From: Escherichia coli
GTDB taxonomy: Bacteria; Pseudomonadota; Gammaproteobacteria; Enterobacterales; Enterobacteriaceae
Assembly (NCBI RefSeq): GCF_013315695.1
Contig: NZ_CP054355.1
Strand: one strand, 5' to 3'
DNA length: 64,000 nucleotides
The notes under the pieces are model-generated. The model saw only the letters and a program-made list of their open reading frames with translations, did not search any database and had not been told where the DNA came from. Both the position numbers and the translations under genes were made by a program. Of this stretch, positions 34,604 through 59,863 are shown piece after piece (within the stretch, counting starts at the first letter, position 1; every line of letters begins with the position of its first letter).

Positions 34604-35464
34604 TTAAAGATGTTTTTTAAACCATTGCGTCTGTACTGCCGCCACACGTTCAAAAAACGCGCCTTCATAAATATCATAATGGCATGCGTCAGCTTCCTCG
34701 TATAATTCCTTAGTACCAGAAGCAACAGCATCATATAAGGCTTTTCCCTGTTCTGGTGGATTAACACTATCCTGGCCGGCAATAACAATCAAAACTGGGC
34801 ACTGTACTTTGGCTGCGCTCTCTGCCGGTTTATATTGCAACGTCTCCATAACCGTAAGGAAAGGTATTTTTATATCCATTTCAGGATACTGACCTTTTAC
34901 CTTCTCGAAGAATACCTTTGATTCATTATCACTCAGTACCCGGGTAACCCCCACAAACATCTCTTTCCCGGTGTTTTTCTTCTTCTCTGCCATTTTATTC
35001 AGCGTGGACAGAAAAGACGCTCTCTCCGATTCATTCATCTCTCCGGTAACCAGAACATCACCGTCAGCAAAAGCCAGCTGGCTGACAATACATTTTACGC
35101 GTTGGTCCTGCGCAGCTGCACTGAAGACATGCCCCCCTCCCAGCGATGTTCCCCATAACCCAATACGCTGATTATCAATACATTCCTGCTTTTCTGCCCA
35201 ATTGATAACTGAAATAATATCTTCGGTCTGCATTGCAGGAACCAGACGCCCTCGTTCTCCATCACTCTCACCGAATCCTCGATAATCAAAAGTAATCGTT
35301 GCGAATCCTGCTTCTGTAAAGGCATTCGCAAAGCAAGGGAGCAGAACATTCCTGATACCGCAAAACCCATGGCATAAGATAATCAAAGGATGTTTTATAT
35401 TTCCTTCAGGAACACGAAATGTCAGGGCAATACCTTCAGAGAGTTTGTGATCCGTAATTTTCAT
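34604..35464 (-). CDS. alpha/beta-hydrolase fold protein
   Basis: GxSxG nucleophile elbow (GTSLGG), HG oxyanion motif; between traX and finO. Confidence 0.6.
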   Translation of the reverse strand: MKITDHKLSEGIALTFRVPEGNIKHPLIILCHGFCGIRNVLLPCFANAFTEAGFATITFDYRGFGESDGERGRLVPAMQTEDIISVINWAEKQECIDNQRIGLWGTSLGGGHVFSAAAQDQRVKCIVSQLAFADGDVLVTGEMNESERASFLSTLNKMAEKKKNTGKEMFVGVTRVLSDNESKVFFEKVKGQYPEMDIKIPFLTVMETLQYKPAESAAKVQCPVLIVIAGQDSVNPPEQGKALYDAVASGTKELYEEADACHYDIYEGAFFERVAAVQTQWFKKHL

Positions 35465-35522
35465 AAATATCCTGTGTTATGTTGTTTATTAATAATCAGA
35501 ATCAGCGTCAGTATCATACCAG

Positions 35523-36269
35523 TCACAACGCCAGAACGCCCAGCACAGCCAGATGACAGGCGTAGAATACCGGGAAAAAATCCCCGGGCCAGAAACGGGG
35601 TAATGATTTTCCTGCACACGACACCAGACCAACGGTCAGCACCGTCATTACAAGACCGGCCACCGCCGCTGCATCACTGGAGGCAAGGTTAAGTGCCGGA
35701 ATAACGGCCAGCAGGCATGCAAGCAGCGCCAGACGTTCCGCTCTGTCTTCCGCCCGGTACAGTCGGTAACTGACCGCCAGCATCAGCAGCCCGGCAATGC
35801 CGTAACTGGTGCCGGACAAAGGCCCCCACAGGGCCATCAGAAGAATGGCCGCTGCTGTACGCCACCCACTGCGCGTTTCACACCACGTCAGCACCTGTGC
35901 CGCCACTGCAAAGGCAAACAGGATATTCCCCTCATACCAGGGAAAGCCGGCCAGATAATATGCGAACTGGGCAATAATTCCCCATCCCCACAGCCGGTTA
36001 ATGGCCGGTTGCCGGATATGCGCATGACGGGACAGATTCAGCCCCCACACCAGGGCAAACAGCGGAAAGGCTCCTCGCCCGGCCAGAAACATCCATTCCT
36101 GCTTCAGCTGGAATATCAGATTGATGTGGTCCAGTACCATCAGCACCAGCGCCACCGTTTTGATGATATCCCGCTGTCCGGGTGACCAGACCAGAAACGA
36201 CTGCAACCAGGTATCGGTCCGTGCAGCCAGTGAATCGTTACGTGTCGTGTTCGTGTTATCCGTTGTCAT
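35523..36269 (-). CDS. traX: F-pilin acetylase TraX
   Basis: 248 aa from MTTDNTNTTRNDSLAARTDTWLQ...; the longer listed ORF is an upstream extension overlapping traI. Confidence 0.8.
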   Translation of the reverse strand: MTTDNTNTTRNDSLAARTDTWLQSFLVWSPGQRDIIKTVALVLMVLDHINLIFQLKQEWMFLAGRGAFPLFALVWGLNLSRHAHIRQPAINRLWGWGIIAQFAYYLAGFPWYEGNILFAFAVAAQVLTWCETRSGWRTAAAILLMALWGPLSGTSYGIAGLLMLAVSYRLYRAEDRAERLALLACLLAVIPALNLASSDAAAVAGLVMTVLTVGLVSCAGKSLPRFWPGDFFPVFYACHLAVLGVLAL

Positions 36270-36288
36270 CAGTGTTTGTCTTCCTGTA

Positions 36289-41559: not shown

Positions 41560-43784
41560 CAGAAATCATCTCCCGGCTCAACATCCTCCCCACGCTCCCG
41601 GTGCACATTAATGTTCACCTCTTCACGACGCTGCATCTGCTGCTGGATGTCCGGATGATTTTCCTGTTGCCATGCCTCATAAGCGGCCATATCCACCACT
41701 TCACCGGATTCACTGATCCCGGGTGGCAGTTGCTGTTCCATCTCTTCTTCCGGTTTCATTTTCAGCTCCTGCTCGATCCCCCCTGCCGGAACACTCACAC
41801 CTGCATCTGACTTCTTATCATTGATGACAGAAGACACTGGCTGTTGTGGCTGTTGTGGCTGTTGTGGCTGTTGTGGCTGTTGTGGCTGTTGTGGCTGTTG
41901 TGGCTGTTGTGGCTGTTGTGGCTGTTGTGGCTGTTCAGCCTGAGTCACATCTTCTCCGGAGGCAACCTCCGGTTCAAAGAGGCTGGCCATCTGACGACCT
42001 TCTGCTTCCCTTGCGGCAAGTACGGCACTCAGACGGTTCTCCATTTCCGGGTTGATGTCACGCGGAATAAACTCCGGAGCGACCTTCGGTCGTGCCTGAT
42101 ATTTCAGAGAGAGTTTGACTGCCGGATACGGTCCGGGCAGAGTGACATAGCAGGTCAGATCCGGCAGAGACTGAATGTCGGAATAACTGACCAGCGTCTG
42201 ACGCTCCATATCCTTACCGGTCGATACCCCGTCACGTACCGGGTCAGCACCGTAGGAATACTGCTCGCTGGCTTTCAGGTGCTCTTTCTCACCAATCTCA
42301 CCGGCAGCGAACTCTGCAATCTTATGGCTCGGGGAACGGAAAAAAGCACGGGTGTTCATGACGTCAAACAGCGTGGCCGCCGCTTTCTCACCGTAGATAT
42401 CTTCCAGCTGGGCATAGGACTGGATACCAAACACATAACAGCCACCGAACTTACGGGCTTCCGGCAGGATCTCCACCAGGTCCGGCAGTTTGTGTAACGT
42501 GGGTAACTCGTCACAGAAAAACCACACACGACGGTTACGGTTTTCTCCCATTGCCAGCAGACCACGAATGGCAATGGACAGCCACATGGAGATCACCGGC
42601 TTCAGGGAGGCATGGGTGTCGGCGTTCGACGAAATAAACAGCCAGCCGTTTTTCTGATCTTCCCGGACACCACGCATCCAGTCACGGATGGTAAAAGACT
42701 CACCGTTATGCTCAATCCCCTGCAGGTAACGGATGGCTTTCACGTAGTTGGTCAGCACAGCACGGATGGAAATCGCCGTTTTCTCAATTTTCTCTTCCAC
42801 CAGGTTGGCTGCCGGTGAATTACGCAGGAAGGTACGCAGTTTTTCAATTTTGATGGAAAGCAGTGTGTCCACCAGTTTGCTGTAGCTGCGGTTGGGGTCA
42901 TTACGCATCAGGTACGCCGCTTCCGCAAAAATGGTACGTCCTGAACCCTGCCAGAACGGGTCCTCTTTTGTACCCATAGGGATCAGAGTATTTGCGGTAT
43001 TATCAAAATCCGGCTGTGTCAGGCACTCCTTCCACAAATCCCATGCGGCACAGCGGGCATCCAGCGGATTCAGGATTTTATCGATGGAGGGATCATAGTA
43101 ACTTTTAACAAATTCCCCTGAACGGTCATAAATCACCACCATATCACCGCGCTGACGGGCATAGTTGGCCAGACGACGGATAACCTCCGACTTACCGGCC
43201 CCGACCGTGCCGTGCAGACAGAAGTTCTGGATTTCGGAATCCCGGATAATCGGCAGGTCGCCAATCCGGATATCGGAGTCCTTGCCGTCTTTTTTCAGCA
43301 TCCGGGCCACTTCTTTCGGGTTATCCGTCAGCTGACGCCCGCCGGTCACCTCATTTTCACTCTGCTGTTTCCCCTGATGCCCCAGAATCCAGGAGACAAC
43401 AAAGAAGGTGATCAGGCAAATAACCAGGGCCACGACAGACGCCAGAACGAATGCAGACCATAGCTGCTCTCCGCACCAGATCATATATTTATCATGCAGT
43501 ACCTGGGCAGCGTTCATCCGGAAGGTTTTGCCGTAATACTGGATCTCATAGACCGGCTGGGATTTTATTAAATCCCGCATGCCTTCCAGTGACGTACACC
43601 ACCAGTAAATACAGCCGTTGATAAACGTCTGCCAGCTTATTTTTACCCATAAGACCAGACCAATGAGGATCCAGAAAAAAATAAACAGGCAGTAAAGCAT
43701 GATATTGGCGATCTGGCTGAACATGCGGATACGCATGGACGCAATCTGACCGCCCTGGGTCATATCCTTTGCGTTAAAACTCAT
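41559..43784 (-). CDS. traD: type IV coupling protein TraD
   Basis: 741 aa, N-terminal TMs, Walker [10 protein letters not shown]-terminal (QQP)10 repeat. Confidence 0.9.
41841..41930. repeat. perfect 9-bp tandem repeat x10 (ctgttgtgg) encoding the (QQP)n tract of TraD
   Basis: Counted directly in sequence. Confidence 0.9.
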
Positions 43785-43834
43785 GATGAAACTCCGGGAA
43801 AATCTGGAACAGGGCAGAAAAGGATGATGTGGGG

Positions 43835-44572
43835 TTAATTCACAGAAACAGACCAGGTGTACCCTGTATGCCGGTGGTGATGCCCGCCTGCAGTCCTGCC
43901 GGAAGAGACCTTCTCTGTAACAATGTCAGTCAGGCGCAATACTTCAGACCAGTCACTCCCATGCGGAAACTGGATCTGAATAAAAAGGCGTACCCGTTCA
44001 CGGTGATCCAGAACTGTGTCCGGTTCATAAAAACGGCCACTGTCAGGAGAAACACAGGACGTTTTATTGATGAGATCATACTTATCGGCAGGAGACTGCG
44101 ATGAAATCGCCCAGGTGATATTCTCCGCCTGGTGGCCATCAATACGACTGCTCCCCGGCGTCCATGCAATTTCCTGCGCACTCGCCACGATGATCTCCCT
44201 GGAAACTTCAGCCAGCTTTCTGGGTGTACAGAATACCGGTGCCAGCACACACAGGGACAACAAATTACAGCTGACCGCCTCCGGTTTAAGCAAATTGCTC
44301 CCGGATTTTTCAGGAAAAGATATTTTTGTCAGTATTTCAGTTAATTCCTTATGCCTGAGAGAATTAATAAAGTACATGATAAGCATCATGAGAAACAATA
44401 TAACAATAAGCCCTCCGATAACCACTAAAAGGTCAGTATCAATATTATTGCTGTACAGATAGTCTTTAGTGGTCACTGTATTATCCTGTATCACCGGGGG
44501 GTATTCAGTTACAGGCTTCTCAGTAAATTGATTATTCTCACCAACATATTCAGCGATATTGTCTGATGTCAT
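43835..44572 (-). CDS. hypothetical single-pass membrane protein inserted between traT and traD
   Basis: ATG at 44572 preceded by GGAGAAAG; one TM helix ([22 protein letters not shown]); no recognisable domain. Confidence 0.5.
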
Positions 44573-44644
44573 AATGACTTTCTCCGGAAGATCCCGGCTT
44601 CGCCGGCAACACTTCACGGTCGCACAAAGAATTTGCACAACCGC

Positions 44645-44745
44645 TCAGTGTTTTCATATTTATTTCGGAAACGCCGGGAGGTGACAAAATTTATTTTGTT
44701 ACATCCCGGGGTTGGACAACGAGCAACGCGAGGCGTCAGCAAGGA
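44645..44745. repeat. ~80-bp repeated element, copy 2 (between traT and the extra gene)
   Basis: Conserved flanks shared with 31935-32015, different internal hairpin. Confidence 0.55.
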
Positions 44746-44774
44746 GGCCGGTCAGATCAGCCTCCTGACGAGGT

Positions 44775-45506
44775 TCAGAGAATATTTGCGATTGATTTGG
44801 CCAGTTGGTCTTCGAGAACAGGCTTCGCCTCTTCAAATTTCAGGTTAACCTTGTTCGCATTTGAAACCACACGGGTCTGGTATTTATGCTGGTTACCTGT
44901 TTCAGTACTGGTCTGAATTTTCGCACCTGATGTGCCCTGACGCAGGGCGGCAACATTATCCGTTGTCACCGTTGCCTTAGTACGCTCTGCAATCTGTACA
45001 TCCGTGATCATGGTATAGTTCACATCTTCCACCATCGCATCTGCAGCCATACCCACCAGACCAGCAGCAAGGCCTACACCGAGTGTGGCACCGGCAGAAT
45101 TTGAGTTATAGCCGGTAATACCGGCACCTAACGCTGCACCAACAGCTGCGCCTTCATAACCACGGTTCAGCCATCCCTGAGACTCCCGCAGATCCATCTT
45201 ATCAGCCTTCAGCACATTCGCCTGAATCCAGTAGTAGGCTTTATCCGGAGAAGTCACCACCTGATATCCTTTTGCTTTCACAGCATCAGCAATTTTGCCC
45301 TGCAGCCCACTCATGTCTTTATCAGACGTGTTTTTGATCTGCAGAAATACCGTGCGTTCGCTGGCGGGTTCAAGCCAGATGGTCTCACTCATCTGAGTCT
45401 TCACCTCAAGGTTACGCTTCTTGATTGCTGTGCTCATCGCACCACACCCTGAAAGGGCCAGAGTGGAACTGACCAGTGCAACCATCATCAATTTTTTTGT
45501 TTTCAT
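44775..45506 (-). CDS. traT: surface exclusion lipoprotein TraT
   Basis: 243 aa, lipobox LSGC, matches F TraT. Confidence 0.9.
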
Positions 45507-45519
45507 CCAAAATATCCTT

Positions 45520-46029
45520 TTAACTAACAGACTCTTTTTTGAATAGTCCTATTACTGAGGCTATAGCTGAGAGATTATAACGATTTATATCTATGGTATA
45601 CACCAAGAAAAATAATATGAATGTAATCATTAGTGCAAAAACATATAAGATAGAATGCATAAACGAAACCATAGAAAAAACAATCAAAAACAACAAAATA
45701 TATGTCTTACTCTTAGAATACATAAAATTTATTATTTTTGAATCCTTTCTGAAACTATCAGGAATCGCAAGGTATAACATCATTCCATTTGTAATAGCCA
45801 CAAAAAGCAGGAACCCCATCATTCCACTAGCACATATATCAAAGCCAACATCCCTGACATCACTTTTAACCGATACTAAACGCAGAAAAGTTGGCCATAA
45901 TAAAACCCATAAAAACACATAAGTTCCCGGCTTTATGACTTGTAATAATGATGGGATATTAACACCCTCTACAGAGAGTACCTCCTTTAGTTTCTGCATC
46001 TCCATTTTTATATCATAGTGAGTGATCAT
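45520..46029 (-). CDS. traS: entry exclusion protein TraS
   Basis: AT-rich hydrophobic 169-aa ORF between traG and traT. Confidence 0.65.
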
Positions 46030-48851
46030 AATGGCCCCTTCAATCGTTCTTTCTTATCATCCACCATCTGTTTTAACGCATCTTCAGACGGTGTTGGCAT
46101 TAATTTCTGTCGTTTATTTTCTTCATTATATCTGTTGTTTTGCTGAATTTCTTCCTGTTTGTGATTATTTTTTAACTCTGAATATTGTCTGTCTACAATA
46201 TTTTCTTCGCCATGAATACTATTCTGAGTATCTCCGATATTCCCTTTATATTCTGTGACCATATTATCAACCTGATGTTTTACATCATTACGGATATTAC
46301 TGTCCTGCGTTCTTTGATCAATAATGACCTGATGCCCCTGATGGTCAGCAATAATATCCTGGCTGCCACCACCCGAAGGTACGCTCTCCATTCCTTTACC
46401 AATATCCCCACGGGATTCACGCCAGGCATTATCAACACCAGGCTGTACCTGTTCCTGCACAAAAGACCACGCCATAGCCCGACGGCGTTCTGCAATCTCC
46501 GGCGAACTGGTATTTGTCAGAATAGCTTCTGCATCCTGCGGTGCGCGTTTCATCACATACTGTGCAAACTGTTGCGACAAGTCTTCACTCATCTGCCCGC
46601 TCATGCTTTCAGTACGGGAGGCCATTTCCGCATATTCATGGCTGCGGGTCATATTCGTCGTGTACTGGTCGTAACTCTGTTTTGCTGAGTTCAGGGCTGC
46701 AGACAACTGGTCCACGCGGGAATCGGCATTATTGTCAGTATGGCTGCCGGATTCACTGACTTTGCGACTGGTAAAGTAATCGCTGGCCTCTTTAAAGTCC
46801 TTACTGGCTTTAGCATCGATATCATGGCGAGCATCATGGGTAGCCCTGCTGCCACTACTTGCTGAATGTGAGTCATCATCCGTTGCATCCAGGCTCCCCT
46901 TAAATCCACCTCTGATGCCTACCCCACCACCAACACCAAGAATTTTAGGTTTAACCCCCCATTCAGCATGAGCATCAGCATACATTCCACCAGATAGCCT
47001 GGTACTTGTTGATGCCAGTTCCTGAGTCGCCTGCTCATTACTGATATTATGCGCCTTCGCATAGCTTTCCACTGCACTGCGCATACGGCTGGCCATCATG
47101 GAGTCCTGTGCGCTCATCGTGCTGTCAGCACCACCTGTGACAGAATCACTGCTCCCCCGGTTAGAACCAAACTGGCTGAGCGAGTTCCAGGCACTGGCAA
47201 TACTGCTGCTGAACCCATGCAGGGCGCTTTCTGCTCTGTTCGACGCCTCCCGGGCCATTTCCTGTTGTGCCGCTGCAATCTGACGCGTTGCATTGATACC
47301 AACCGGTAACCGGGACATCGCCCCGCTCGCATCCATCACCATATTACCGTCACGGGTCTGTGTGGCAGTTGCGCCACTGCCGGTCTGGTACATCATCTGA
47401 CCAAACGACGTGGTGCTGTTGGTGCTCCAGCTGAAGCCGTTCACGTTTTCCGTCTGCATGTTGCCGTAGGAGTAATTACCGTCAACCACACTACCTGCCG
47501 CACTGGCAGTCGGGCTGATAGCAGAGGAAGCGAAATGGCTGTACACGCTGGAAAAACCTGCGCCAAGGCCTTTTACCATCATCCATGACAACGGGGGTAT
47601 CATGACAGATATATATCCGGCAGTGGACGCCAGGTCGGAGTATTTCAGCTGTATCTGAGAGAGTTCAGAGAGCACGACCGGTGCACCATTCTGCTTTGCA
47701 TAGAATGTCATGGCACTGTTCAGAATGGCATACAGCAACGGCCAGGTCTGGAACCACATCAGAGCAAACACATAGCCTCTCAGAACAGACAGCGTCAGTC
47801 TGTTGAAGACAGCCGCCAGTACCAGGAGCGGGAAGATACCAATGGTAATGCCCACCAGAATGGTCTGCACCATCGGCAGGTTTCGCATCAGCACATGACC
47901 AATGGAGACATGTGCCAGACGCTGTTTCTCCATTGACGAAGTCGTGGCCAGACTGACCAGGCTGGCGGTATCACCGTTACGGGCTGCATTACTGGTGATA
48001 CCCTCTTTCAGGGCATTCATGGTGACGTTCTGGCGCATAATATGACTGGCAGACTGGCTGGAGCCGTAGAAATAACTGTAACTGTCACTCACCAGTTGCC
48101 TGAATAACAGGTCCGGGTCCGGTCTGCCGCCAAATATCTGCTGCACATAATAATGCCAGGTCTTGCCTCCCGTCTTTGTATCGAGATTCAGCCTGTCTTT
48201 CAGCGTGACCGACGCATCTTTACAGGTTATGAAATTATTATTGCTGTCATAAACGCCCCGTAGCGGGCTGGGCCGGGAAAAAATCAGCGTGTAGGGGTCA
48301 CCGGAGGCCATCAGGTCTTCCAGCGTGTATTTGTGGTTCAGGTAAATATCCCCCAGCACGCAGTTCTGGACGTAGTCCTGAAACAGATTGATGATTTCCG
48401 GATTCCGGGACAGAAAATCGGTGCTTTTCACAATCAGGTTCGCCCCGAACAGCATGCCTGTCTTGCTGTAGGTGGCGCTGTCAGGCTGGGTGAATATCAT
48501 CTCGTAACTGGCCACCATTGCATGCCCGATACGGGTCGTCAGTGAAAGTGGCATCGCCAGTCCGACCGGCACATTATCCACCCGGTGAACTTTGACCAGG
48601 TCACTGTTATCAATAATCTGCACCGATGTACGGACATTAACCAGCAGGCTGATAAGCACAAACACGGCCACCCAGCCCAGCAAATCCATCACGTTGTGCC
48701 GCTGTACCCACATCACGGCCACCGCGAGAACAGACAATGTGAGCGCAATTTTTTCGATGGAATCCCACGTCCGGGTCCCCATAAAGGCGGCAATGGCGTT
48801 CAGGTTATTGCTTAACCACTCACCACCGGCAATCACATAGACTTCATTCAC
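46026..48851 (-). CDS. traG: mating-pair stabilisation protein TraG
   Basis: 941 aa, polytopic N-terminus, position. Confidence 0.85.
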   Translation of the reverse strand: MNEVYVIAGGEWLSNNLNAIAAFMGTRTWDSIEKIALTLSVLAVAVMWVQRHNVMDLLGWVAVFVLISLLVNVRTSVQIIDNSDLVKVHRVDNVPVGLAMPLSLTTRIGHAMVASYEMIFTQPDSATYSKTGMLFGANLIVKSTDFLSRNPEIINLFQDYVQNCVLGDIYLNHKYTLEDLMASGDPYTLIFSRPSPLRGVYDSNNNFITCKDASVTLKDRLNLDTKTGGKTWHYYVQQIFGGRPDPDLLFRQLVSDSYSYFYGSSQSASHIMRQNVTMNALKEGITSNAARNGDTASLVSLATTSSMEKQRLAHVSIGHVLMRNLPMVQTILVGITIGIFPLLVLAAVFNRLTLSVLRGYVFALMWFQTWPLLYAILNSAMTFYAKQNGAPVVLSELSQIQLKYSDLASTAGYISVMIPPLSWMMVKGLGAGFSSVYSHFASSAISPTASAAGSVVDGNYSYGNMQTENVNGFSWSTNSTTSFGQMMYQTGSGATATQTRDGNMVMDASGAMSRLPVGINATRQIAAAQQEMAREASNRAESALHGFSSSIASAWNSLSQFGSNRGSSDSVTGGADSTMSAQDSMMASRMRSAVESYAKAHNISNEQATQELASTSTRLSGGMYADAHAEWGVKPKILGVGGGVGIRGGFKGSLDATDDDSHSASSGSRATHDARHDIDAKASKDFKEASDYFTSRKVSESGSHTDNNADSRVDQLSAALNSAKQSYDQYTTNMTRSHEYAEMASRTESMSGQMSEDLSQQFAQYVMKRAPQDAEAILTNTSSPEIAERRRAMAWSFVQEQVQPGVDNAWRESRGDIGKGMESVPSGGGSQDIIADHQGHQVIIDQRTQDSNIRNDVKHQVDNMVTEYKGNIGDTQNSIHGEENIVDRQYSELKNNHKQEEIQQNNRYNEENKRQKLMPTPSEDALKQMVDDKKERLKGPL

Positions 48852-50230
48852 AGCGTGCTCCCTCCGAAGTGATAGTTGTTCTGGTAACGGCTGAGCATGC
48901 GGGCGGAAAGCTGCTGGCGCATGTAGCTCATCTGACGGTCAACAACCAGCAATGCATCCTGCTGGACCTTTACCTGCCCCTGGAAAACCGCAATCTGTTG
49001 CTGTGCCTGATTCAGATTCTCCAGCACACTGTCCAGCACGGTCTGTGGATAGTTCCCGGTGGCAATCATGGCCCGGGCCTGCTGAAGCAGTTCCTGAATG
49101 TACTGGAGCATGATGTCGTAGCCGATATAGTCCGTCAGCTGGTAAACCACGCTGCTGGACACACCGAGCATCTGCGGGTCAATAAGATATTTAAAGACGG
49201 GGACGGTGGTGCTGGAAATGAAGCCTTTTTCCCTGTCATCCAGTGGAGTATCACTCACCGCTTTATTCTGAATACTGGTGAGCAGTTTTGTAATCTGTGA
49301 TTTCAGGGCTTTATCCCGGGCGATGGTCACATTTGCATCCGCCACCACCTTCAGACACTTGTCCGAATCGTTGCAGTGATAAACTTTTGCCGTTCCCCCC
49401 TCCATAATCGCCCGGAGGATATCGCGGTCAGTGGTACGCGCCGGCAGGGGGGTAATCTCGCTGTCTTCCCCAAAAATCAGCGTACCGGTGAGCGTCATAA
49501 TAAATTCTTTCAGTTCTTTGTTACCATCAAGCATCCTGTTTTTGGACAGCGAGTCCCAGATGATATTGATGTTCTTCAGCACCCGTTCCTTATCTTTGTC
49601 ACTGGCCTTGTCACGAACAGACGATGACTGTCCTCCGACCGTGCAGCCCTGACGGGACGCGGCCCAGTCAGCAAAAATATTGCTCTCACCGGCAATGTCC
49701 TGACAGACCTTCTGCTGTGACACCTGAGTCTGAGGAAATAATCCTCCGACAATCCCCTGCGCCACCTGACAGGAGCTGAGGTTCATACTGTTAATGTCGC
49801 TTGCCATTTTCTGCAGGAAGTCTTTTGCGGTTTTGATTTCCGGCACCGTTGCCTGCAGGGCAAGGTCAAAAAAGTAACCGGCAGCGTTGCTCATAATCTG
49901 CTTAACAAAACGCTGCAACTGATCGCCATTAATAAAACTGAACGAGCCGAGATAGGCGTCGATGCCGCCACATCCGGCATTGATATCCGGCAGCGTCATG
50001 GAAATCAGCTGGATATTTTTGACCTGGGTGCGGGCATACAGGGAGCCACCATAGGCATACCCGGCGGCCTGCCCCTGCCAGACGCCCGGTTGTGTGGTAT
50101 TGGAAGCAAATCCCAGCTTATTAAAGAACTGATTCATGTCGCTGTTCACATCCGCTGACGCTGCGGGTGTGACCGTCAGTAAAGCGGCACAAAGAACCAG
50201 AAGAGGTTTAATGCGAAGCATTATTGCCAC
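48848..50230 (-). CDS. traH: pilus assembly protein TraH
   Basis: 460 aa with signal peptide, position. Confidence 0.85.
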   Translation of the reverse strand: MAIMLRIKPLLVLCAALLTVTPAASADVNSDMNQFFNKLGFASNTTQPGVWQGQAAGYAYGGSLYARTQVKNIQLISMTLPDINAGCGGIDAYLGSFSFINGDQLQRFVKQIMSNAAGYFFDLALQATVPEIKTAKDFLQKMASDINSMNLSSCQVAQGIVGGLFPQTQVSQQKVCQDIAGESNIFADWAASRQGCTVGGQSSSVRDKASDKDKERVLKNINIIWDSLSKNRMLDGNKELKEFIMTLTGTLIFGEDSEITPLPARTTDRDILRAIMEGGTAKVYHCNDSDKCLKVVADANVTIARDKALKSQITKLLTSIQNKAVSDTPLDDREKGFISSTTVPVFKYLIDPQMLGVSSSVVYQLTDYIGYDIMLQYIQELLQQARAMIATGNYPQTVLDSVLENLNQAQQQIAVFQGQVKVQQDALLVVDRQMSYMRQQLSARMLSRYQNNYHFGGSTL

Positions 50231-50633
50231 CCTCCCTTAATTTGTTCTCCCGGCGCATACGGCGTTTCAGCCGGAATATTCTGATCCCCCCGTTTATTAA
50301 TTCATTTAAAGGGTTCCTGACGTATACGATAAGAAATCCACCTGCAAACGCCCATAACGTATACGGAATGACATACATCAGGATGTTCCACATATAACGA
50401 AAATTATTTAATTCCGGGTCAGCTTTCCACGAATCAATACAGGCATCAAAAATACTATGCATAATCACCCATAAAAAAGTTCCGGCAGCAACGAACACAA
50501 AAAACAGATCAAAATATATATCAGAAACCCTGCGTTCATAATCATAATCCCGTTTAGTTTTTCTGTTTTTTAGTTCCGCATCATTTCTTTTTTCTTTCAT
50601 TATAAGTTTCCTCTGATATTTCCGATGATTCAT
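50208..50633 (-). CDS. trbF: TrbF (start uncertain)
   Basis: Small membrane protein between trbJ and traH. Confidence 0.55.
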   Translation of the reverse strand: MNHRKYQRKLIMKEKRNDAELKNRKTKRDYDYERRVSDIYFDLFFVFVAAGTFLWVIMHSIFDACIDSWKADPELNNFRYMWNILMYVIPYTLWAFAGGFLIVYVRNPLNELINGGIRIFRLKRRMRRENKLREGGNNASH

Positions 50634-50961
50634 TCAGGCCGTTCATGCGGCTGTAATATATTTCAGACACCGAAATCCATCCCACAATTGCCCCCACAAA
50701 AAACACAACAGAAACAGAAAAGGTAAGACACAGCGAAACGACAATTTCCACAGGGCTGGCGGGATAAAAAAGCCCCTGACGGATAAAGGGGATATTCAGG
50801 CTGACGATTATTCCCGTCGCGATGCCGGATATTCCGGCAATGAGTAACACCACCTGCTTATTTCGTACCTTTTTCCTCTCCGTACATCTGCAGAACGGTA
50901 TCCATCCGCGCCATAAAACTGGCGGCATCCGTTGCCCCCTGCAAAAGCGGTAATGCCTCAA
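50581..50961 (-). CDS. trbJ: TrbJ (start uncertain)
   Basis: Small membrane protein between trbB and trbF. Confidence 0.5.
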   Translation of the reverse strand: MRHYRFCRGQRMPPVLWRGWIPFCRCTERKKVRNKQVVLLIAGISGIATGIIVSLNIPFIRQGLFYPASPVEIVVSLCLTFSVSVVFFVGAIVGWISVSEIYYSRMNGLNESSEISEETYNERKKK

Positions 50962-51403
50962 GTGTGTTGACGTTGACCAGGAAGGTGGTCGGTGTGGCCA
51001 CCGGGATATTCGGGAAGAAGGTCTGCATCACGTCCGGTGGCACCGGTAATGCTTCCGGAAAGGCGGTATCCCCCTGACCATCCAGGGTGTAGGGAAAAAC
51101 GGAAAAGCCGTACTGCTGTGCCAGCTGTTTCAGTACCGGGTCAAACTGGTGACAGTAAGGGCAATGCCCCTGCATAAACAGCACCACCTTCCAGTCGGCC
51201 AGGTTAACCTGCCTGCCGTTGCTGAGGCGGAACCAGCGGGGAGCCGGCTTTTCTGTTCTGGCTGATGTGTCTGCTGCCGGTTGTGCAGGCTGCACGGCCA
51301 TACCCTGCGGATTCCAGAGTCGTTCAATTTCATCCCGGGTGGAGGCCTGCACACCTGTGGCCATCATCAACAAAATGACCGGCAGTAATTTAGTGAGAGA
51401 CAT
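50858..51403 (-). CDS. trbB: periplasmic thiol:disulfide isomerase TrbB
   Basis: 181 aa, signal peptide, CPYC active site. Confidence 0.8.
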   Translation of the reverse strand: MSLTKLLPVILLMMATGVQASTRDEIERLWNPQGMAVQPAQPAADTSARTEKPAPRWFRLSNGRQVNLADWKVVLFMQGHCPYCHQFDPVLKQLAQQYGFSVFPYTLDGQGDTAFPEALPVPPDVMQTFFPNIPVATPTTFLVNVNTLEALPLLQGATDAASFMARMDTVLQMYGEEKGTK

Positions 51404-51674
51404 GTCCGCCCTCCTGCTGCCCTTCCATCATGGCCTGTTGCCTGGCTTCCAGTGCCTCACGCTCTTCCAGGCTGACACGTGCAATCCATGCATCCAGCAC
51501 CTGGTATGCGCCGAACAGCACAAGGATGGCCGCAATCAACTCCGCCAGAAAAAAAGCCATCCAGGGTTTGCTGTAAACAAGACGGGCGACGATATGAAAC
51601 CAGACACCCAGGGAAAATACCCACATTCCCGTAATATCAAGCCGTGGTAAAGAGAATCTGCGTTTACTTATCAT
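51390..51674 (-). CDS. traQ: pilin chaperone TraQ
   Basis: 94 aa membrane protein, position. Confidence 0.75.
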   Translation of the reverse strand: MISKRRFSLPRLDITGMWVFSLGVWFHIVARLVYSKPWMAFFLAELIAAILVLFGAYQVLDAWIARVSLEEREALEARQQAMMEGQQEGGHVSH

Positions 51675-51754
51675 GTTAAACTCCGGTTATTATTTACATG
51701 AGAGTATTCATGTCTGTAATATTCGCGTTTGTGTGATATTAATCAGAGGTACAA

Positions 51755-52090
51755 ATGAAAAAGTTATCTTTTAAAGAAAAACTGGAAATAGTGAGAAACA
51801 TCATAAGAGAGTCATTATCAGGTAATGCGGCTTTTGCTTTACTGGTGTATTCATTATTGCACTCCCTCCCCATTAAAACCTTTGCTGATTTATTTGTGAC
51901 GATACTGTTATTTATAGCGATTATCGCTGTTGTGATATGGCTATTTCTAATCATCTATGTTTATTTTTGTGAGTTATTCAGAAGTCACTGGATAGCAGTC
52001 TGGTTTATCCTCTGGTCTGTGGTAATCAACCTCACTATTGGATTTGGCATTTATGACAAATTAGCACCAGTCATTTCACTAATGAAATAA
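51755..52090 (+). CDS. artA: anti-tra-strand membrane protein ArtA-like
   Basis: Hydrophobic ORF on the opposite strand between traQ and trbA, as in F. Confidence 0.5.
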   Translation: MKKLSFKEKLEIVRNIIRESLSGNAAFALLVYSLLHSLPIKTFADLFVTILLFIAIIAVVIWLFLIIYVYFCELFRSHWIAVWFILWSVVINLTIGFGIYDKLAPVISLMK

Positions 52091-52412
52091 TAAAAAACCA
52101 CATCACTCCAGACCATATGGCTGACAACATAATACAAACAAACATCCTTCTGAAACTGTCAAACTTCGTGATAACTGGTATGGTACTGACTGCCATTGAA
52201 ACAACCGGTACGGCACACTGATTCATAACCGCACCACAAAGAAACAAGAAATTATCTGGCAGCATACATACACTTATGACATTTACTACAAAGAAGACAA
52301 ACGAGCTCAGCAGATAAACTCCTTTATTATTTGGTCCTGTAAAGAAATAACCAACAACCCCCACGATAAACAGGCTGGCACCTGTAAAAAAACACAAATC
52401 CCCTGTATGCAT
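52071..52412 (-). CDS. trbA: TrbA
   Basis: 113-aa membrane protein between traF and traQ. Confidence 0.65.
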   Translation of the reverse strand: MHTGDLCFFTGASLFIVGVVGYFFTGPNNKGVYLLSSFVFFVVNVISVCMLPDNFLFLCGAVMNQCAVPVVSMAVSTIPVITKFDSFRRMFVCIMLSAIWSGVMWFFIISLVK

Positions 52413-52425
52413 ATATAACCTTTGG

Positions 52426-53199
52426 TTAAAAATTCGGTTTAAAATCTTCAGAAACGTTCAGGAACTGTTTTGCCAGGTCGTCCTGTGAAATAAAGCCGTA
52501 TGATAACGGGCGAACACTGCCCTGTTTCGGGTCAACCAGCATCATGGCCGGGAAATATTTCACACCGAGGCGCTGCGCCTGCCCCTGGTCAGTCCGGGAA
52601 TCCGGCAACAGCGGATTAATCACGCCATCCACGGAAACGGGAATAACACTCAGACCATAGGTATCCCTGAAGCCATTAATGACCTGCGCCAGTTGCCCGT
52701 CGATGGGGTCCTGCCCCCGGTAAAAGAACATGATGCCGTAGTGTTCAGCCAGTTTCGCAATGGCCTGTCGCTGCTGCGCCTGGTCTGCCGCCAGCTGGTT
52801 CCGGACCGTGCCGTTGTAATGGCTGTACTGCAGGTTATAGTCCAGTTCGGGATGCGCCAGCATGGCTTTTTTGGCGCTCATGGTGAAAAGCCCGGCCTGC
52901 TGAGTCCAGTAATTCTGCAGCCGGAAATATTTCACAAAATTATCCACGCCGGGATACAGAATAGCTTCGTACAGCGCCCGCTTTGTTGCCGTCTGCAGCG
53001 CGGTCAGTTTCTGCATAATGTCCGGCTCCTGACGGGGGGCTGCAGGTACTGGTTTATTTTCTTTTTCCTTCGGATTTATTTTCTCGTTATACCACTGCCA
53101 GCCTGCATCTTTTCCTGACGCCGGAAAAATAAAGCAGCAGAGTAACAGTGGCAGTAATGCTTTATTCATCTTCATTCCTTTCATCACTTTTTCTTTCAT
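52426..53199 (-). CDS. traF: pilus assembly protein TraF (thioredoxin-like)
   Basis: Signal peptide; position and size (about 247 aa from MNKALL). Confidence 0.8.
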   Translation of the reverse strand: MKEKVMKGMKMNKALLPLLLCCFIFPASGKDAGWQWYNEKINPKEKENKPVPAAPRQEPDIMQKLTALQTATKRALYEAILYPGVDNFVKYFRLQNYWTQQAGLFTMSAKKAMLAHPELDYNLQYSHYNGTVRNQLAADQAQQRQAIAKLAEHYGIMFFYRGQDPIDGQLAQVINGFRDTYGLSVIPVSVDGVINPLLPDSRTDQGQAQRLGVKYFPAMMLVDPKQGSVRPLSYGFISQDDLAKQFLNVSEDFKPNF

Positions 53200-53422
53200 C
53201 AGGTTTCTGCAGGTCAGTCAGGGCAGAAAAACAAAAATACAGAATAAACAGAAGCACACCGGAGTAAAGGATAACGAAAGCAGCAGCAAGCATCTCACCT
53301 GCAGTGGTTTCTTTTACCGTATCCCACGACCAGATAATTACCGGGGAAATGACAAACGCTGTAATCAAAAGCCGGATAAGAAAATCAATAAAACGGTTCG
53401 ACGTGAATATGACTTTCATCAT
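53162..53422 (-). CDS. trbE: TrbE
   Basis: 86-aa membrane protein between traN and traF. Confidence 0.65.
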   Translation of the reverse strand: MMKVIFTSNRFIDFLIRLLITAFVISPVIIWSWDTVKETTAGEMLAAAFVILYSGVLLFILYFCFSALTDLQKPDERKSDERNEDE

Positions 53423-53445
53423 TTCCCCCGGTTATTTTCCATACC

Positions 53446-55296
53446 TTACTGTCCTGCCTGTTTCAGCTGGTCAGCAATCTGCTCTTTCACTTTCTGCGTC
53501 AGAACGCCACTGTCCGGGATTTTCTGGTTATTCATCAGGTCTTCGTAGAAGTTAGTGAAATCCAGTCTGTCGAACTGAATTTTCTGCAGCTCATCAACCG
53601 TAATCCCCCGACAGTCAGGATGCTTCGCACGGCCAAAACTGATACGCAGCTGACCGTTGCGCCCCTGCTGCTGGACTATCTGCGCCAGCTTCGAATCAAA
53701 CTGACAGTAGCTGCGTTTTTTCTGCAGACAGACACCCAGCACTTTCTTCGAACAGAACTCTCCGACACTGACGGTCAGTTTGTTTGATTTTGCTTTAGCC
53801 AGGGCCTTTTCATCACTGCTGCATTTGGCCAGCCCGATATCCTGTCCCCAGCCGCTGTCCTTACAGCAGTTGCTGTATCCGGCTGCAGCCTTCTTACAAA
53901 ATTTCGCCTGACCGGTGAAAGCACGGACATCCACCCCGTTCAGCGCCGCAACATCCTTACCTGCTGCGGCCAGTGCCGCCAGCTGAGAAACGGCTTCGGC
54001 AAAATCATTACTCTGCCCGCTCTGAGCCTTATCACATTCGCCATCGAGACAGAAGACGTCTCCCCCACAGACCATCACTTTCCCGGATGTTTTTGACTCG
54101 CAGGAGTACGTGGCGTACTCATGCAGACAGGTTCCCTCATCGGAATAAAACGCGCACTGACGTGAGGCCAGCGTACAGGCCGGATTATCGACATATTTCT
54201 GACAGGTGCCGTTATCTGCGGACTGAGTGACATATTTATCCCGGTATGCCCAGCATGCCTGTGTGATGTTCCAGGGTTTACCTTCCATCACTCCGGTTTT
54301 CGTACCACCCGGCTCTGAACACTCAGTGCCTGTCAGCACGCCATCCGCTTTATTAAACGGACAACTCTCCACCCACTCCACCCGGGGAACCCATTCTTTA
54401 TCACGGACCTTCATCCTGAGTTTCAGCGTAAAGGTGGAAGCACCACTGACAAGCGATTCATAGACTTTCCTGTCACCATTCCCGTGCGGGAGGCAATTAC
54501 CGTTAGCAGTACAGCCACTACCGGTCAGAACCTGCCCCTGTGTCACCTGCAAACCTGTCGCCCCGGACAGGGGGTAAGTATCCGACTGCCCGTTTGCCAG
54601 GCCGACATTAAAGGTTGTATTCATGAAGGTATAACGGGAGTTCAGGAAGAAAAAAGCGGCGTATACAGACAATGATGCACTTTCCACTGTACCGGTTACC
54701 GGAGCCGTGACACTGAACACCAGTTTCAGCCCGTTCATACTGAACCGGAACTGTGAGTGCGGTATCGTCACTTCACGATATTCATCCGTGTATTTCCAGT
54801 CCCCGGTGATACTGGCAGTCCGTGTGCAGTACTCCTCCACCATCGTGTCCCGCTCACAGGTATAGTTTGTGAACTCACTGCGGTTTATCTGCTGCGCACT
54901 GCACTGCTGCCCGGTGTTTCCCACAATGCTGTCAGCCCGGTTCACCACATCCCTGCCGGTCTGAATGAACGGTGCATCCGGTGACAGAATGTCTTTCGGC
55001 TTGTTCATGAAGGACTCTGTGATGGTTTTTCCGGTTTCACCGGTCGCCCATTCCGTGGTGCCGTCATTTTTCAGGCCGCCATCCCCGCCGGCAGTCACGC
55101 CACCGTAATATTTTGTCTCGTCCGGATTCGCGTTATAGCTGGGGATACTCTCCTGTGGCTTAAAGCCCTGAATACTGCCTGTACCCTGCCCCTGAATCTG
55201 ACGGGCAAAATCAGAACCGGCCCGGTAATCACTGTTGCTGTCAGCCTGTGCCATGCCGGCAACCAGAGCCAGTATCAGAGGTAAAATACGTTTCAT
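53446..55296 (-). CDS. traN: mating-pair stabilisation outer-membrane protein TraN
   Basis: 616 aa, Cys-rich, signal peptide. Confidence 0.85.
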   Translation of the reverse strand: MKRILPLILALVAGMAQADSNSDYRAGSDFARQIQGQGTGSIQGFKPQESIPSYNANPDETKYYGGVTAGGDGGLKNDGTTEWATGETGKTITESFMNKPKDILSPDAPFIQTGRDVVNRADSIVGNTGQQCSAQQINRSEFTNYTCERDTMVEEYCTRTASITGDWKYTDEYREVTIPHSQFRFSMNGLKLVFSVTAPVTGTVESASLSVYAAFFFLNSRYTFMNTTFNVGLANGQSDTYPLSGATGLQVTQGQVLTGSGCTANGNCLPHGNGDRKVYESLVSGASTFTLKLRMKVRDKEWVPRVEWVESCPFNKADGVLTGTECSEPGGTKTGVMEGKPWNITQACWAYRDKYVTQSADNGTCQKYVDNPACTLASRQCAFYSDEGTCLHEYATYSCESKTSGKVMVCGGDVFCLDGECDKAQSGQSNDFAEAVSQLAALAAAGKDVAALNGVDVRAFTGQAKFCKKAAAGYSNCCKDSGWGQDIGLAKCSSDEKALAKAKSNKLTVSVGEFCSKKVLGVCLQKKRSYCQFDSKLAQIVQQQGRNGQLRISFGRAKHPDCRGITVDELQKIQFDRLDFTNFYEDLMNNQKIPDSGVLTQKVKEQIADQLKQAGQ

Positions 55297-55772
55297 TTCC
55301 CGGAATCTCCTTTCCCTGCCAGTAAATCATGAGCCACCTGCCGGCAGTCACCCGTGGCGGCCACTTTCTCCAGCGCCAGGCCGACCCGCAGGTTTCCCCG
55401 GATGATGTCGTATCCCTGACTGCAGAACACCACCAGTGCCGGTACACTGCGAATGCCGTACTGTGAAAACAGCGTCGGGTCGATCTGAACACCATCAGTC
55501 GCGCCGTCTTTCACCAGGGACAGCACGGCTTCAGCGGTGGTCTTCAGGTCATTGTTCACCATGCCCCGCAGTGTGGCCGGAATACCGTAGTGCCGGGTTT
55601 CGCCCAGCATCCGTTTCAGCCCCTCTTCGGGAATGGAAAACGACACAAAATACAGGGCACCCTGCCGGGGTTTCCCGTCCTGCGAAGCCTGCTGTTTACG
55701 AACCAGCTCATCCAGAAAATGGTTATCTGAACGCTGAAGGGGGTTTTCCAGCACCTGTTTCTCCGCCCAGGC
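55293..55772 (-). pseudogene. trbC: TrbC, 5'-truncated by IS1
   Basis: Reading frame runs open into the IS1 left end at 55773. Confidence 0.65.
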
Positions 55773-55827
55773 GGTGATGCTGCCAACTTACTGATTTAGT
55801 GTATGATGGTGTTTTTGAGGTGCTCCA

Positions 55828-56103
55828 GTGGCTTCTGTTTCTATCAGCTGTCCCTCCTGTTCAGCTACTGACGGGGTGGTGCGTAACGGCAAAAGCACCG
55901 CCGGACATCAGCGCTATCTCTGCTCTCACTGCCGTAAAACATGGCAACTGCAGTTCACTTACACCGCTTCTCAACCCGGTACGCACCAGAAAATCATTGA
56001 TATGGCCATGAATGGCGTTGGATGCCGGGCAACAGCCCGCATTATGGGCGTTGGCCTCAACACGATTTTACGTCACTTAAAAAACTCAGGCCGCAGTCGG
56101 TAA
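55828..56103 (+). CDS. insA: IS1 InsA
   Basis: 91 aa, [23 protein letters not shown]... Confidence 0.9.
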
Positions 56104-56525
56104 CCTCGCGCATACAGCCGGGCAGTGACGTCATCGTCTGCGCGGAAATGGACGAACAGTGGGGCTATGTCGGGGCTAAATCGCGCCAGCGCTGGCTGTT
56201 TTACGCGTATGACAGGCTCCGGAAGACGGTTGTTGCGCACGTATTCGGTGAACGCACTATGGCGACGCTGGGGCGTCTTATGAGCCTGCTGTCACCCTTT
56301 GACGTGGTGATATGGATGACGGATGGCTGGCCGCTGTATGAATCCCGCCTGAAGGGAAAGCTGCACGTAATCAGCAAGCGATATACGCAGCGAATTGAGC
56401 GGCATAACCTGAATCTGAGGCAGCACCTGGCACGGCTGGGACGGAAGTCGCTGTCGTTCTCAAAATCGGTGGAGCTGCATGACAAAGTCATCGGGCATTA
56501 TCTGAACATAAAACACTATCAATAA
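56022..56525 (+). CDS. insB: IS1 InsB (expressed as InsAB' by frameshift)
   Basis: 167-aa ORF in the -1 frame relative to insA. Confidence 0.85.
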
Positions 56526-56540
56526 GTTGGAGTCATTACC

Positions 56541-57248
56541 AAAGTCCGGGTCATTACGACGTTTAATCAATTCATCTGCAACGAGGAAACTGGTATCACT
56601 GGATGCCATGCGCAATGCACTCATTGCAGCTTTCGTAACTGAAGACACACCAATGCCAGAATTACCATGAATGGCACTTACAGAGTCAAATTGACCAACG
56701 ATAACACCAACATCAAGCGTAGTGCCGCCAATATCAACTACCAGCGATTTTTCGAACTGACCAACTTTATCCACGACCAGACGAGAAAACACAGCTGGCA
56801 ATGATTCAGGCATCACATCAACGTGTTCAATGGTGAAAACATCGCCTTTATTAAGACGAATCGGCCTCATTAAATTCTCAATTTTACGCTGAATGTTGAG
56901 TTCATTTTTTTGACACTCTTTCGTATAGAACTCACTGATAGGCAAAGTCACAGTCAATGATACAGGCTGAGGCGCTAATCCACTATTCAGTAAAGCGTGA
57001 TGCACAGCTAACAGGTTAACATCCGTATATTGATACTCAATATGAGTCGTAAGAATAGATTGGTTGCTAACTTCATCATACGTGTATTTTTTACCATCCA
57101 GTTCATAGTTAAATGTCTGGCGAATTCCTAACCCGTCAACCTTCCATCCATGACGAAATGAGTTTTGCGACAACGACTTACAGATTTTCCCATTATCATT
57201 CCATGCCAACTTGATTGTTGTTGAACCATCATCGCAGTATACGTTCAT
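56541..57248 (-). pseudogene. parM: actin-like segregation ATPase ParM/StbA, 3'-truncated by IS1
   Basis: N-terminal ..DDGSTTIKL.. actin-fold phosphate motif; frame reads into the IS1 right end; no parR follows. Confidence 0.65.
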
Positions 57249-57476
57249 CTATAGCCCCTTAAATACTCAATCTGAGTAAATCATTGTTTCTGGTTGCAAG
57301 GTAATACTCAATTTGAGCACCATCATAGTTATGAAATCACAAAACACAAGTATTATTTATTACATCACATGGCACACTTCACATTTCATACTTCATAAAT
57401 ATGAACACATATTGACACCTCAGGTTACCGTGTCAAAATATCATCATACTTCACACATCACATTTATGAGGTTGCA
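57249..57476. promoter_or_regulatory. parC-like centromere/promoter region shared by divergent par genes
   Basis: Direct repeats (atactcaatYtgag x2; acttcaca-type repeats) between the divergent parM and parA starts. Confidence 0.5.
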
Positions 57477-58121
57477 ATGATTACTGTAGTTGGTGGGAAC
57501 AAAGGTGGTTCAGGGAAAACTACCATTGCATCAAACCTGGCTATTGCTCTCGCAAATAAAGGAAGGGAAGTCTGCCTGTTAAACGGAGATCTACAACGAA
57601 CAGCCGCAAAACATCATGCGGAACGAGAAGCTGCAGGACTGTTACCAGCAATAACCCTTGTTGAGAAATTTGATAACCTGACACAAACACTACAGGCTCT
57701 GAATGAAAAGTTCGATGATGTAATAGTGGATGTCGCAGGAAGAAACTCAAAGGAATTCATAACGAGTGGAGTTGTCGCACATCAAATAATTGCGCCACTA
57801 CAGTGTTCTCAACCAGATCTGGATACTCTTACAGAACTAGAACAACAGATAGACGCAATGCGTAACCTTAACCCGGAACTTAAGGTTTATTGTTTACAAA
57901 GTATGGCAACAACCAATCCGGTTTTGAGGGGAAATGAGAGAAAAGAATTCCTTGAATATCTTGAAGAATTCCCAACAATTCAAGTCCTTGATTCAGTTAT
58001 TTGTTTCAGAAAAGTCTATCGCGATTGCATGAGCAACGGCACCGGTGTAGTAGAAACGAACAATACAGCAGCCAAAGCAGAAATTGAACATTTAATGAAT
58101 GAGGTATTTGGCCCATGGTGA
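57477..58121 (+). CDS. parA: ParA-family partition ATPase (small type Ib, pB171 par2-like)
   Basis: Deviant Walker A GGNKGGSGKTT; 214 aa. Confidence 0.75.
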   Translation: MITVVGGNKGGSGKTTIASNLAIALANKGREVCLLNGDLQRTAAKHHAEREAAGLLPAITLVEKFDNLTQTLQALNEKFDDVIVDVAGRNSKEFITSGVVAHQIIAPLQCSQPDLDTLTELEQQIDAMRNLNPELKVYCLQSMATTNPVLRGNERKEFLEYLEEFPTIQVLDSVICFRKVYRDCMSNGTGVVETNNTAAKAEIEHLMNEVFGPW

Positions 58122-58390
58122 AGAAACCCAGCCAGCAAGCATTAAACAGAGCTGCAGTTACGGTAGAACAAGCAGAGGCTCTGGCTCAGCGCCTTGCGGA
58201 TAAACCATACGGCGCGCCGGAAAAACCCGAACCAGAAAAACAATGTCGGACGACAATCTCTCTTGGTGAAAGCATGCTTGTCACAATAGAAGATCTGGCA
58301 TTGAGGAATAAACGCAATGGTAAAGATCCAAAAAATGTAAGTGCCATCGTCAGAGTAGCCCTTGAGCAATACTTAAAAACACTAACGTAA
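58115..58390 (+). CDS. parB: small centromere-binding partner (ParB/ParG-like)
   Basis: 91-aa ORF overlapping the parA stop (ATGGTGA). Confidence 0.55.
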   Translation: MVKKPSQQALNRAAVTVEQAEALAQRLADKPYGAPEKPEPEKQCRTTISLGESMLVTIEDLALRNKRNGKDPKNVSAIVRVALEQYLKTLT

Positions 58391-58527
58391 TAATCAATAA
58401 GTTATTACTTATGAAATCACACTTGTGAATTCATACTGTTTAAGCACCCTTGCATACAAGAGATCACATATTGCAGTGGTCTCTTTTTTTACAGAATAAA
58501 TCACAATTCATAATTATGATTTATGAA
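58391..58527. promoter_or_regulatory. second centromere-like repeat region (parC2-like)
   Basis: ttatgaaatcaca and aatcacaattcataattatgatttatgaattatg repeats; the former also occurs in 57249-57476. Confidence 0.4.
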
Positions 58528-59337
58528 TTATGCGTGTCTGTTTTTCAGCATTGTGACCGCATCGGACTCAGGCATCGAAAACTGCACCCGGTGCCGTGCA
58601 GCCACATCCAGCGCAAACACCTTCGTGTAGACCTCCGTTGAGCTGATGGACTTATGCCCCATCAGGCTCTGCAGGACCTTCAGTGGTATACCGGCATACA
58701 GCATGTGCATCGCATAGGAATGGCGGAACGTATGTGGCGTGACCGGGACAGAGAACGTCACACCGTCAGTAGCAGCGGCGGCAACCGCCTCCCCAATCCA
58801 GGTCCTGACCGTTCTGTCCGTCACTTCCCAGATCCGCGCTTTCTCTGTCCTGCCTGTTCGTTTATTACGCCGTTCCAGAGGAATTTTCAGTGTTGCCACC
58901 ATCGTCTGCAGCTGACTGACGTACCAGGAGTCGGAGAGCGGAACCAGCCGGTGAGTCTGCTGTCCGGCAGGCGTTCTTCCTGCCGTCCTGGCGGCTTTTT
59001 CGGTCCGCTGCTTCAGAGTGGCCAGCTGCACAAACGGATACGGAGGCGCGAGCGAAAAATCCCCCCGCGTCAGCGCCAGTGCTTCATTAATGCGCGCACC
59101 GGTGTTCCACAGTGTGGCCAGCAGCATCTTGCGGCGCAGATCCGGGACGTAATGGAGCAGGGCACTCACTTCCGGAGCCAGCAGATATTTCGGCAGTTCA
59201 TCATGAACCATCGACATCTGGCGAAGTGCCAGAGCTGCCGGATAATCAATGACAACAGGAAGTTGTGGAGACTGTCCGGCAGAATAAACTGCCGGTACCC
59301 TGGCTGCAGACTGGCTGTGTATAACGGAGCCTGACAT
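58528..59337 (-). CDS. resD: tyrosine site-specific recombinase ResD (multimer resolution)
   Basis: 269 aa with C-terminal R..HxxR..Y catalytic pattern; adjacent to ccdB as in F. Confidence 0.75.
   Translation of the reverse strand: MSGSVIHSQSAARVPAVYSAGQSPQLPVVIDYPAALALRQMSMVHDELPKYLLAPEVSALLHYVPDLRRKMLLATLWNTGARINEALALTRGDFSLAPPYPFVQLATLKQRTEKAARTAGRTPAGQQTHRLVPLSDSWYVSQLQTMVATLKIPLERRNKRTGRTEKARIWEVTDRTVRTWIGEAVAAAATDGVTFSVPVTPHTFRHSYAMHMLYAGIPLKVLQSLMGHKSISSTEVYTKVFALDVAARHRVQFSMPESDAVTMLKNRHA

Positions 59338-59863
<526 letters not shown>

Follow-up and report, generated by a model that had tools for sequence, protein, structure and literature searches.

A probable IS1-associated deletion in a pB171-type double partition locus of an Escherichia coli plasmid leaves the ParA/ParB arm complete

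A 64-kb stretch of the Escherichia coli contig NZ_CP054355.1 (the window), representing part of a plasmid, was analyzed and most probably (about 93%) carries the double par locus of the pB171/pUTI89/pRS218-type IncF plasmids, in which an IS1-associated deletion would have destroyed the type II arm (par1) and left the ParA/ParB arm (par2) with its arrays parC1 and parC2 untouched. Genes were called from the sequence and a reading of its open reading frames, together with Pfam domains. From left to right the order is traN, trbC remnant, IS1, parM', parC1, parA, parB, parC2, resD, ccdB and ccdA (Table 1), with parM' (start 57248, minus strand) and parA (start 57477, plus strand) diverging from start codons 228 bp apart. 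The span 57249–58527, delimited in a sequence-only reading as a pB171-like double partition locus with one arm decayed, frames parC1, parA, parB and parC2 almost exactly; parC2 reaches slightly beyond 58527, overlapping the stop codon of resD.

Table 1. Features of the partition locus and its surroundings, in window coordinates
Feature	Position	Strand	Remarks
traN	53446–55296	minus	
trbC remnant	55293–55772	minus	Lacks first 53 codons; left flank of IS1; Pfam TrbC_Ftype
IS1	55773–56540	plus	768 bp, at deletion junction; terminal inverted repeats; IS1A in sibling record
parM' (par1 actin-like ATPase)	57248->56541	minus	Codons 1–236 of 323
parC1	57249–57476		228-bp shared intergenic region, AT-rich, centromere and promoter; 100% identical to pRS218
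Two direct repeats AATACTCAAT(C/T)TGAG	57262–57276 and 57303–57317		Candidate ParR sites
Cluster A of parC1	57322–57405		ParB-type hexamers, 7-bp register, both orientations
P2	57412–57439	plus	Candidate parAB promoter, between clusters A and B
Cluster B of parC1	57443–57470		ParB-type hexamers directly 5' of parA start codon
parA	57477–58121	plus	214 aa, type Ib partition ATPase
parB	58115–58390	plus	91 aa, ribbon-helix-helix centromere-binding protein
parC2	58391–58534		AT-rich; hexamer clusters 58409–58436 and 58500–58527, single copy at 58463
Terminator-like hairpin	58458–58492	plus	10 pairs, then T-run; inside parC2, 3' of parB
resD-type tyrosine recombinase	58528–59337	minus	Convergent with parB; Pfam Phage_integrase; site-specific integrase in sibling
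ccdB	59338–59643		Sibling annotation
ccdA	59645–59863		Sibling annotation

The retained segment (window 56542–58527, 1986 bp) matches pRS218, pEC14_114, pUM146, pSE15 and many other plasmids at 100% identity, and has matches in 1531 PLSDB records. The architecture is intact in pRS218 (stbB-parM <> parA-parB-resD-ccdBA), the ParR of which is identical at 129 of 130 residues to PDB 2JD3, the ParR of pB171 (PMC3074162). ParA of the window is an exact match to UniRef100 Q0H055, the accession for pB171 ParA in a 2026 NAR survey (PMC13245405). The double par locus of the EPEC adherence-factor plasmid pMAR7 (NC_010862) is 99.5% identical to that of pRS218. Likeness to pB171, which had been proposed from the letters of the window, is thus upheld by way of the proteins and of pRS218: parM and parA diverge around one shared cis region and the proteins are near-identical to those of pB171. 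Only one of the two arms is complete, and the locus is therefore a truncated derivative rather than a full member of the family.

The ParA/ParB arm has the features of a type Ib system. ParA is a small (~200-aa class) ATPase with a deviant Walker A motif (KGGSGKTT, residues 9–16), P-loop Pfam matches of the ParA/MinD/MipZ type and no N-terminal helix-turn-helix, and among solved structures it matched those of the ParF/ParA kind (for ParF, 4dzz and 5u1g, E ~1e-7). The start of parB, directly 3' of the ATPase gene, overlaps the end of parA by 7 nt, and its small product carries an RHH_1 domain over residues 45–88, scoring 21.7 bits and so exceeding the cut-off of 20.5 by a small margin. The source name of the ParB UniRef cluster is CopG-family regulator, and searching ParB against PDB sequences gave chance matches only, with no relative of solved structure. 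Both proteins are 100% identical to copies in many plasmids, in agreement with the description of this arm as type Ib and intact.

Two arrays of short repeats accompany these genes. The 64-kb window contains exactly two copies of the 13-mer TTATGAAATCACA, one at 57329 and one at 58409, with 0.09 copies expected by chance and two or more copies in 0 of 100 shuffles. The unit underlying these repeats is the hexamer WTCAYA, i.e., (A/T)TCA(C/T)A, of which the 228-bp parC1 holds 11 (shuffle mean 2.6, maximum 8) and the 144-bp parC2 holds 9 (shuffle mean 1.3, maximum 6). The observed count of either array was matched in none of 5000 dinucleotide-preserving shuffles, the density over the whole window is 2.45 per kb, and a sliding scan ranked parC1 and parC2 first and second for hexamer density in the window. 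Within the clusters the hexamers lie mostly at multiples of 7 bp from one another and in both orientations, and the distal cluster of parC2 (58500–58527) is palindromic and overlaps the stop codon of resD. The sequence-only reading had placed a repeat region shared by parM and parA/parB between them and a second array with the same motif after parB, and both are seen here.

Between the two clusters of parC1 lies a single strong promoter-like site, the candidate P2, reading TTGACA, a 16-nt spacer and TG-CAAAAT, with 10 of 12 consensus matches and an extended −10 TG. A consensus scan of the minus strand gave no sigma-70 promoter for par1; by eye a weak TTGAGT-17-AACAAT is possible, and no claim is made for it. 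An Enterobacter plasmid carries a double par locus with the same gene order that is 74% identical overall, and in this locus the hexamer arrays are kept far better than the surrounding intergenic DNA, cluster B being nearly invariant. The enrichment, the 7-bp spacing, the embedded candidate promoter and the conservation in this divergent locus agree with arrays that act as centromere and operator in type Ib systems, and the 9 hexamers and shared 13-mer of 58391–58534 agree with the second centromere found 3' of parB in pB171-type loci.

It should also be noted that the distal part of parC2 (58454–58560) consists of the hairpin, the T-run and a near-perfect palindrome (ATAAATCACAATTCATAA / TTATGATTTATGAATTAT) over the resD stop codon. 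Copies ~95% identical to it stand beside resD-like integrase genes in PLSDB plasmids with no other match to the par2 query, e.g., NZ_CP024852.1, and the segment is missing from the Enterobacter double par locus. It may be either a part of the resD module or a parC2 remnant kept by plasmids devoid of par genes.

The divergent arm is truncated, as had been noted. The remnant parM' corresponds to codons 1–236 of the 323-codon parM of pRS218 and is 100% identical to it, with no substitutions in 708 nt, and its open frame runs for 26 codons into IS1, to 56460. Pfam matches comprise StbA_N (E = 1e-64) and, for the ParM C-terminal domain, model positions 3–75 of 159 only. The last 87 residues, making up the C-terminal third of the actin fold, are absent, including the conserved GGGA adenosine-binding loop identified by alignment with R1 ParM, so that the complete actin-fold ATPase of a type II system is lacking. 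Searches of the 64-kb window with tblastn and blastn found neither ParR nor the ParM C-terminus, nor any further gene resembling parA or parM, and the ParR adaptor gene expected 3' of parM is accordingly missing from this part of the plasmid. Within the window the ParA-type system is thus the only complete one, as first proposed. Because ParM has lost these residues and ParR is missing, par1 is taken to be unable to segregate DNA; judging from its sequence, a ParM' stub without its adaptor cannot be expected to make a working ParMRC machine.

Near the start of parM, AATACTCAAT(C/T)TGAG occurs twice (57262 and 57303), in agreement with the "two 10-bp direct repeats" of the known locus, and these copies are candidate ParR sites that would now be orphaned. 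A third putative ParR repeat, GATACTCAATATGAG, with 2 mismatches, was seen at 57032–57046, ~200 bp into the reading frame of parM. The 23-nt block around it is unchanged in the Enterobacter locus of 74% identity, and the repeat may be a further ParR site within the gene or no more than a conserved coding stretch (HIEYQY).

The parM breakpoint falls exactly at the end of IS1, the sole copy of this element in the window, which is flanked by CGCCCAGGC and AAAGTCCGG without a target-site duplication. The two flanks lie 37.2 kb apart on the map of pRS218, the BLAST match on the far side ending at position 38113, 159 nt inside trbC (37954–38592). In comparison with pRS218, the 3' end of parM, stbB (parR), the imp genes, the leading region (ssb, hok), traM to traU and the first 53 codons of trbC are missing. 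A junction of this kind is what an IS1-associated adjacent deletion or IS1-mediated recombination leaves behind, as opposed to slow decay, and the loss of par1 is recent, rare and the outcome of a single event. The arm reported as decayed is indeed lost, and it is the notion of gradual decay that misleads, the surviving parM being unmutated next to a single IS1-associated deletion of ~37 kb. Gradual decay of par1 was rejected on account of the 708 nt of parM without substitutions. An inversion in place of a deletion was also considered and was rejected on the grounds that the window holds no second IS1, no parR and no 3' end of parM.

On the map of the F plasmid, oriT lies just upstream of traM. 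By analogy with this map, since oriT is not an annotated feature of pRS218, oriT would have been lost too. Loss of traM to traU together with that of oriT would make the replicon very likely non-transferable, and the plasmid is therefore regarded as very likely transfer-dead on the strength of its gene content. The remaining tra genes (trbC' to traI; tra region 41838–55772) are only ~97% identical to pRS218 and the par region is 100% identical, which points to a mosaic backbone for which pRS218 is not the direct parent.

The full segment from parR to parB was matched by 1008 PLSDB records, of which 997 contain 80% or more of the double locus; the two arms are nearly always kept together. Among the PLSDB matches listed for the IS1-parM junction, none covered at least 80% of it, and the junction is read as absent from PLSDB because a full-length match would rank first. 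Among 5426 complete E. coli genomes a single one has it, on plasmid NZ_OZ547118.1 (the sibling), which came from a blood culture in the UK and in which PGAP calls the same parM fragment a pseudogene, "missing C-terminus." The trbC-IS1 junction was found in no other complete genome, and the other IS1 flank of the sibling lies near traD, not in trbC. These differing flanks suggest that IS1 deletions followed one another, each extending to one side, or that IS1 mediated recombination with another tra backbone. The sibling is 97.5% identical to the window over 34725–37293 (window 41838–44287). No other partition genes are annotated in the 82 kb of NZ_OZ547118.1, and the annotated relatives of the other parts of the window show none either.

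The left part of the window (1–24688) encodes iron uptake functions (a TonB-dependent receptor, ChaN, an FTR1-type permease and an ABC transporter) and senB/tieB, together with a colicin-E1-family immunity gene and many IS fragments. This content is typical of ExPEC virulence plasmids of the pUTI89/CE10 type, and its best match, at 99.8% identity, is to two plasmids of UK bloodstream isolates.

Three other explanations were weighed against that of a deletion which spared a working par2. One is that par2 no longer segregates the plasmid, with the arrays serving as ParB operators only and persistence depending on killing by ccdAB, on resD, on copy number or on a partition system outside the window. 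Both ccdAB and resD directly adjoin par2, and in pUTI89 the parA and parAB mutants kept the plasmid rather stably, with loss, of ~1%, seen only in the parB single mutant (PMC9800825). However, the stability of the parAB mutant was recorded in a plasmid that still had par1, unlike this one; moreover, parA, parB, parC1 and parC2 are 100% identical to copies in many plasmids and ParA is that cited for pB171, which makes an inactive par2 very unlikely. Less likely again is an assembly artefact, by which the contig would have been joined wrongly at a repeated IS1 and the plasmid in the cell would carry an intact par1. IS1 is indeed highly repeated in E. coli, with a median of ~10 places per genome, and a mis-join would suit the absence of the trbC-IS1 junction from complete genomes and that of the IS1-parM junction from the PLSDB matches listed. 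Against it, the identical IS1-parM junction is present in the independent complete assembly NZ_OZ547118.1, where parM is a pseudogene too, and the window holds one IS1 copy only, with no trace of parR or of the parM 3' end. As no other sequence shows the trbC-IS1 junction, the left side could in principle be misassembled, and par1 would still not be restored.

The third explanation takes the AT-rich repeats for replication iterons, or for a recombination site of the resD/RepFIA module, in place of centromeres. It can draw on the finding that plasmids lacking parAB also carry distal parC2 (58454–58560) next to resD-like integrase genes, but parC1, which is far from resD, is filled with the hexamer of parC2 too, on both sides of the parAB promoter, the arrays are conserved together with the par genes in the divergent Enterobacter locus, and no replication initiator gene adjoins them, so that this possibility is close to negligible. 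The deletion of par1 from a double par locus with par2 left complete is thus retained as the best explanation.

The mechanism expected of par2 is that of published work on pB171 and pUTI89, carried over to this plasmid. Like pB171, pUTI89 has both par types, and the loss of its parB destabilizes the plasmid and raises the expression of stbA (parM) 16-fold; on a mini-R1 plasmid, parAB stabilizes better than stbAB (PMC9800825). By analogy, RHH dimers of ParB would bind the (A/T)TCA(C/T)A arrays of parC1 and parC2 cooperatively, ParA-ATP would sit on the nucleoid and the ParB/parC complexes would stimulate its ATPase. The resulting ParA dynamics would space the plasmid copies evenly over the nucleoid, providing a copy for each daughter cell. 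ParB is also expected to autoregulate the parAB promoter, because this promoter lies between the two hexamer clusters of parC1, and to repress the divergent par1 promoter. With par1 presumably unable to segregate DNA, its two repeats in parC1 would be orphan sites. Given the truncated ParM and the missing ParR, inheritance is predicted to rest on par2, along with multimer resolution by the adjacent resD and addiction by ccdAB.

The system itself is already known, of textbook standing, and nearly unchanged in ~1000 sequenced plasmids; nothing in it is mechanistically new, and the truncation alone is rare. Its importance hardly goes beyond correct annotation, namely that parM is here a pseudogene made by IS1 and that parR is gone. 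At most it provides a natural background with par2 alone, in which one could ask why both arms persist in nearly all carriers. A wider reading, considered unlikely, is that this plasmid and NZ_OZ547118.1 are natural par1-null derivatives in which par2, ccdAB and resD are enough for a large IncF virulence plasmid in bloodstream E. coli, with the type II arm serving mainly in transfer and its leftovers possibly interfering. If so, the event that took par1 would also have removed oriT and half of the tra operon, which would fit a type II arm kept in ~99% of carriers mainly for conjugative transfer and not for vegetative segregation; a role in conjugative transfer has been reported for ParM/ParR of R1 (PMC4949242). 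What remains of par1, namely the ParR sites and the ParM' stub, could then exert incompatibility or interference against incoming pB171-type plasmids.

Comparison with known systems places the locus as follows. Like delta/omega of pSM19035 and parFGH of TP228, par2 pairs a small Walker ATPase with a small RHH protein that acts as centromere binder and repressor in those systems, although the protein sequences are only remotely related. Its sites (57322–57470 and 58409–58527), with a TCAC/TCAT core, both orientations and spacings that are mostly multiples of 7 bp, resemble the unspaced WATCACW heptads of omega (PMC2441792), a resemblance in sequence that may serve as a lead and is not put forward as homology. 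As regards parMRC of R1, the full-length ParM of pRS218 aligns to R1 ParM over residues 2–295 (E = 4e-76), whereas ParM of the window ends 87 residues short and stands without its adaptor ParR. The closest likeness is to pB171, with which the locus shares the divergent parM and parA, a shared region of ~230 bp, a ParA of 214 aa and an RHH ParB of 91 aa, the hexamer arrays 5' of parA and 3' of parB and the two direct repeats upstream of parM; it differs from pB171 in that IS1 interrupts parM after codon 236, parR is deleted and par2 alone is complete. To the IncFIB/FIIA ExPEC virulence plasmids of the pUTI89/pRS218/pEC14_114 type it is identical over the 1986 bp retained, with the same neighbors resD, ccdB and ccdA, but those plasmids have parM, parR, a leading region, oriT and the full tra operon, where the plasmid described here has ~37 kb replaced by one IS1.
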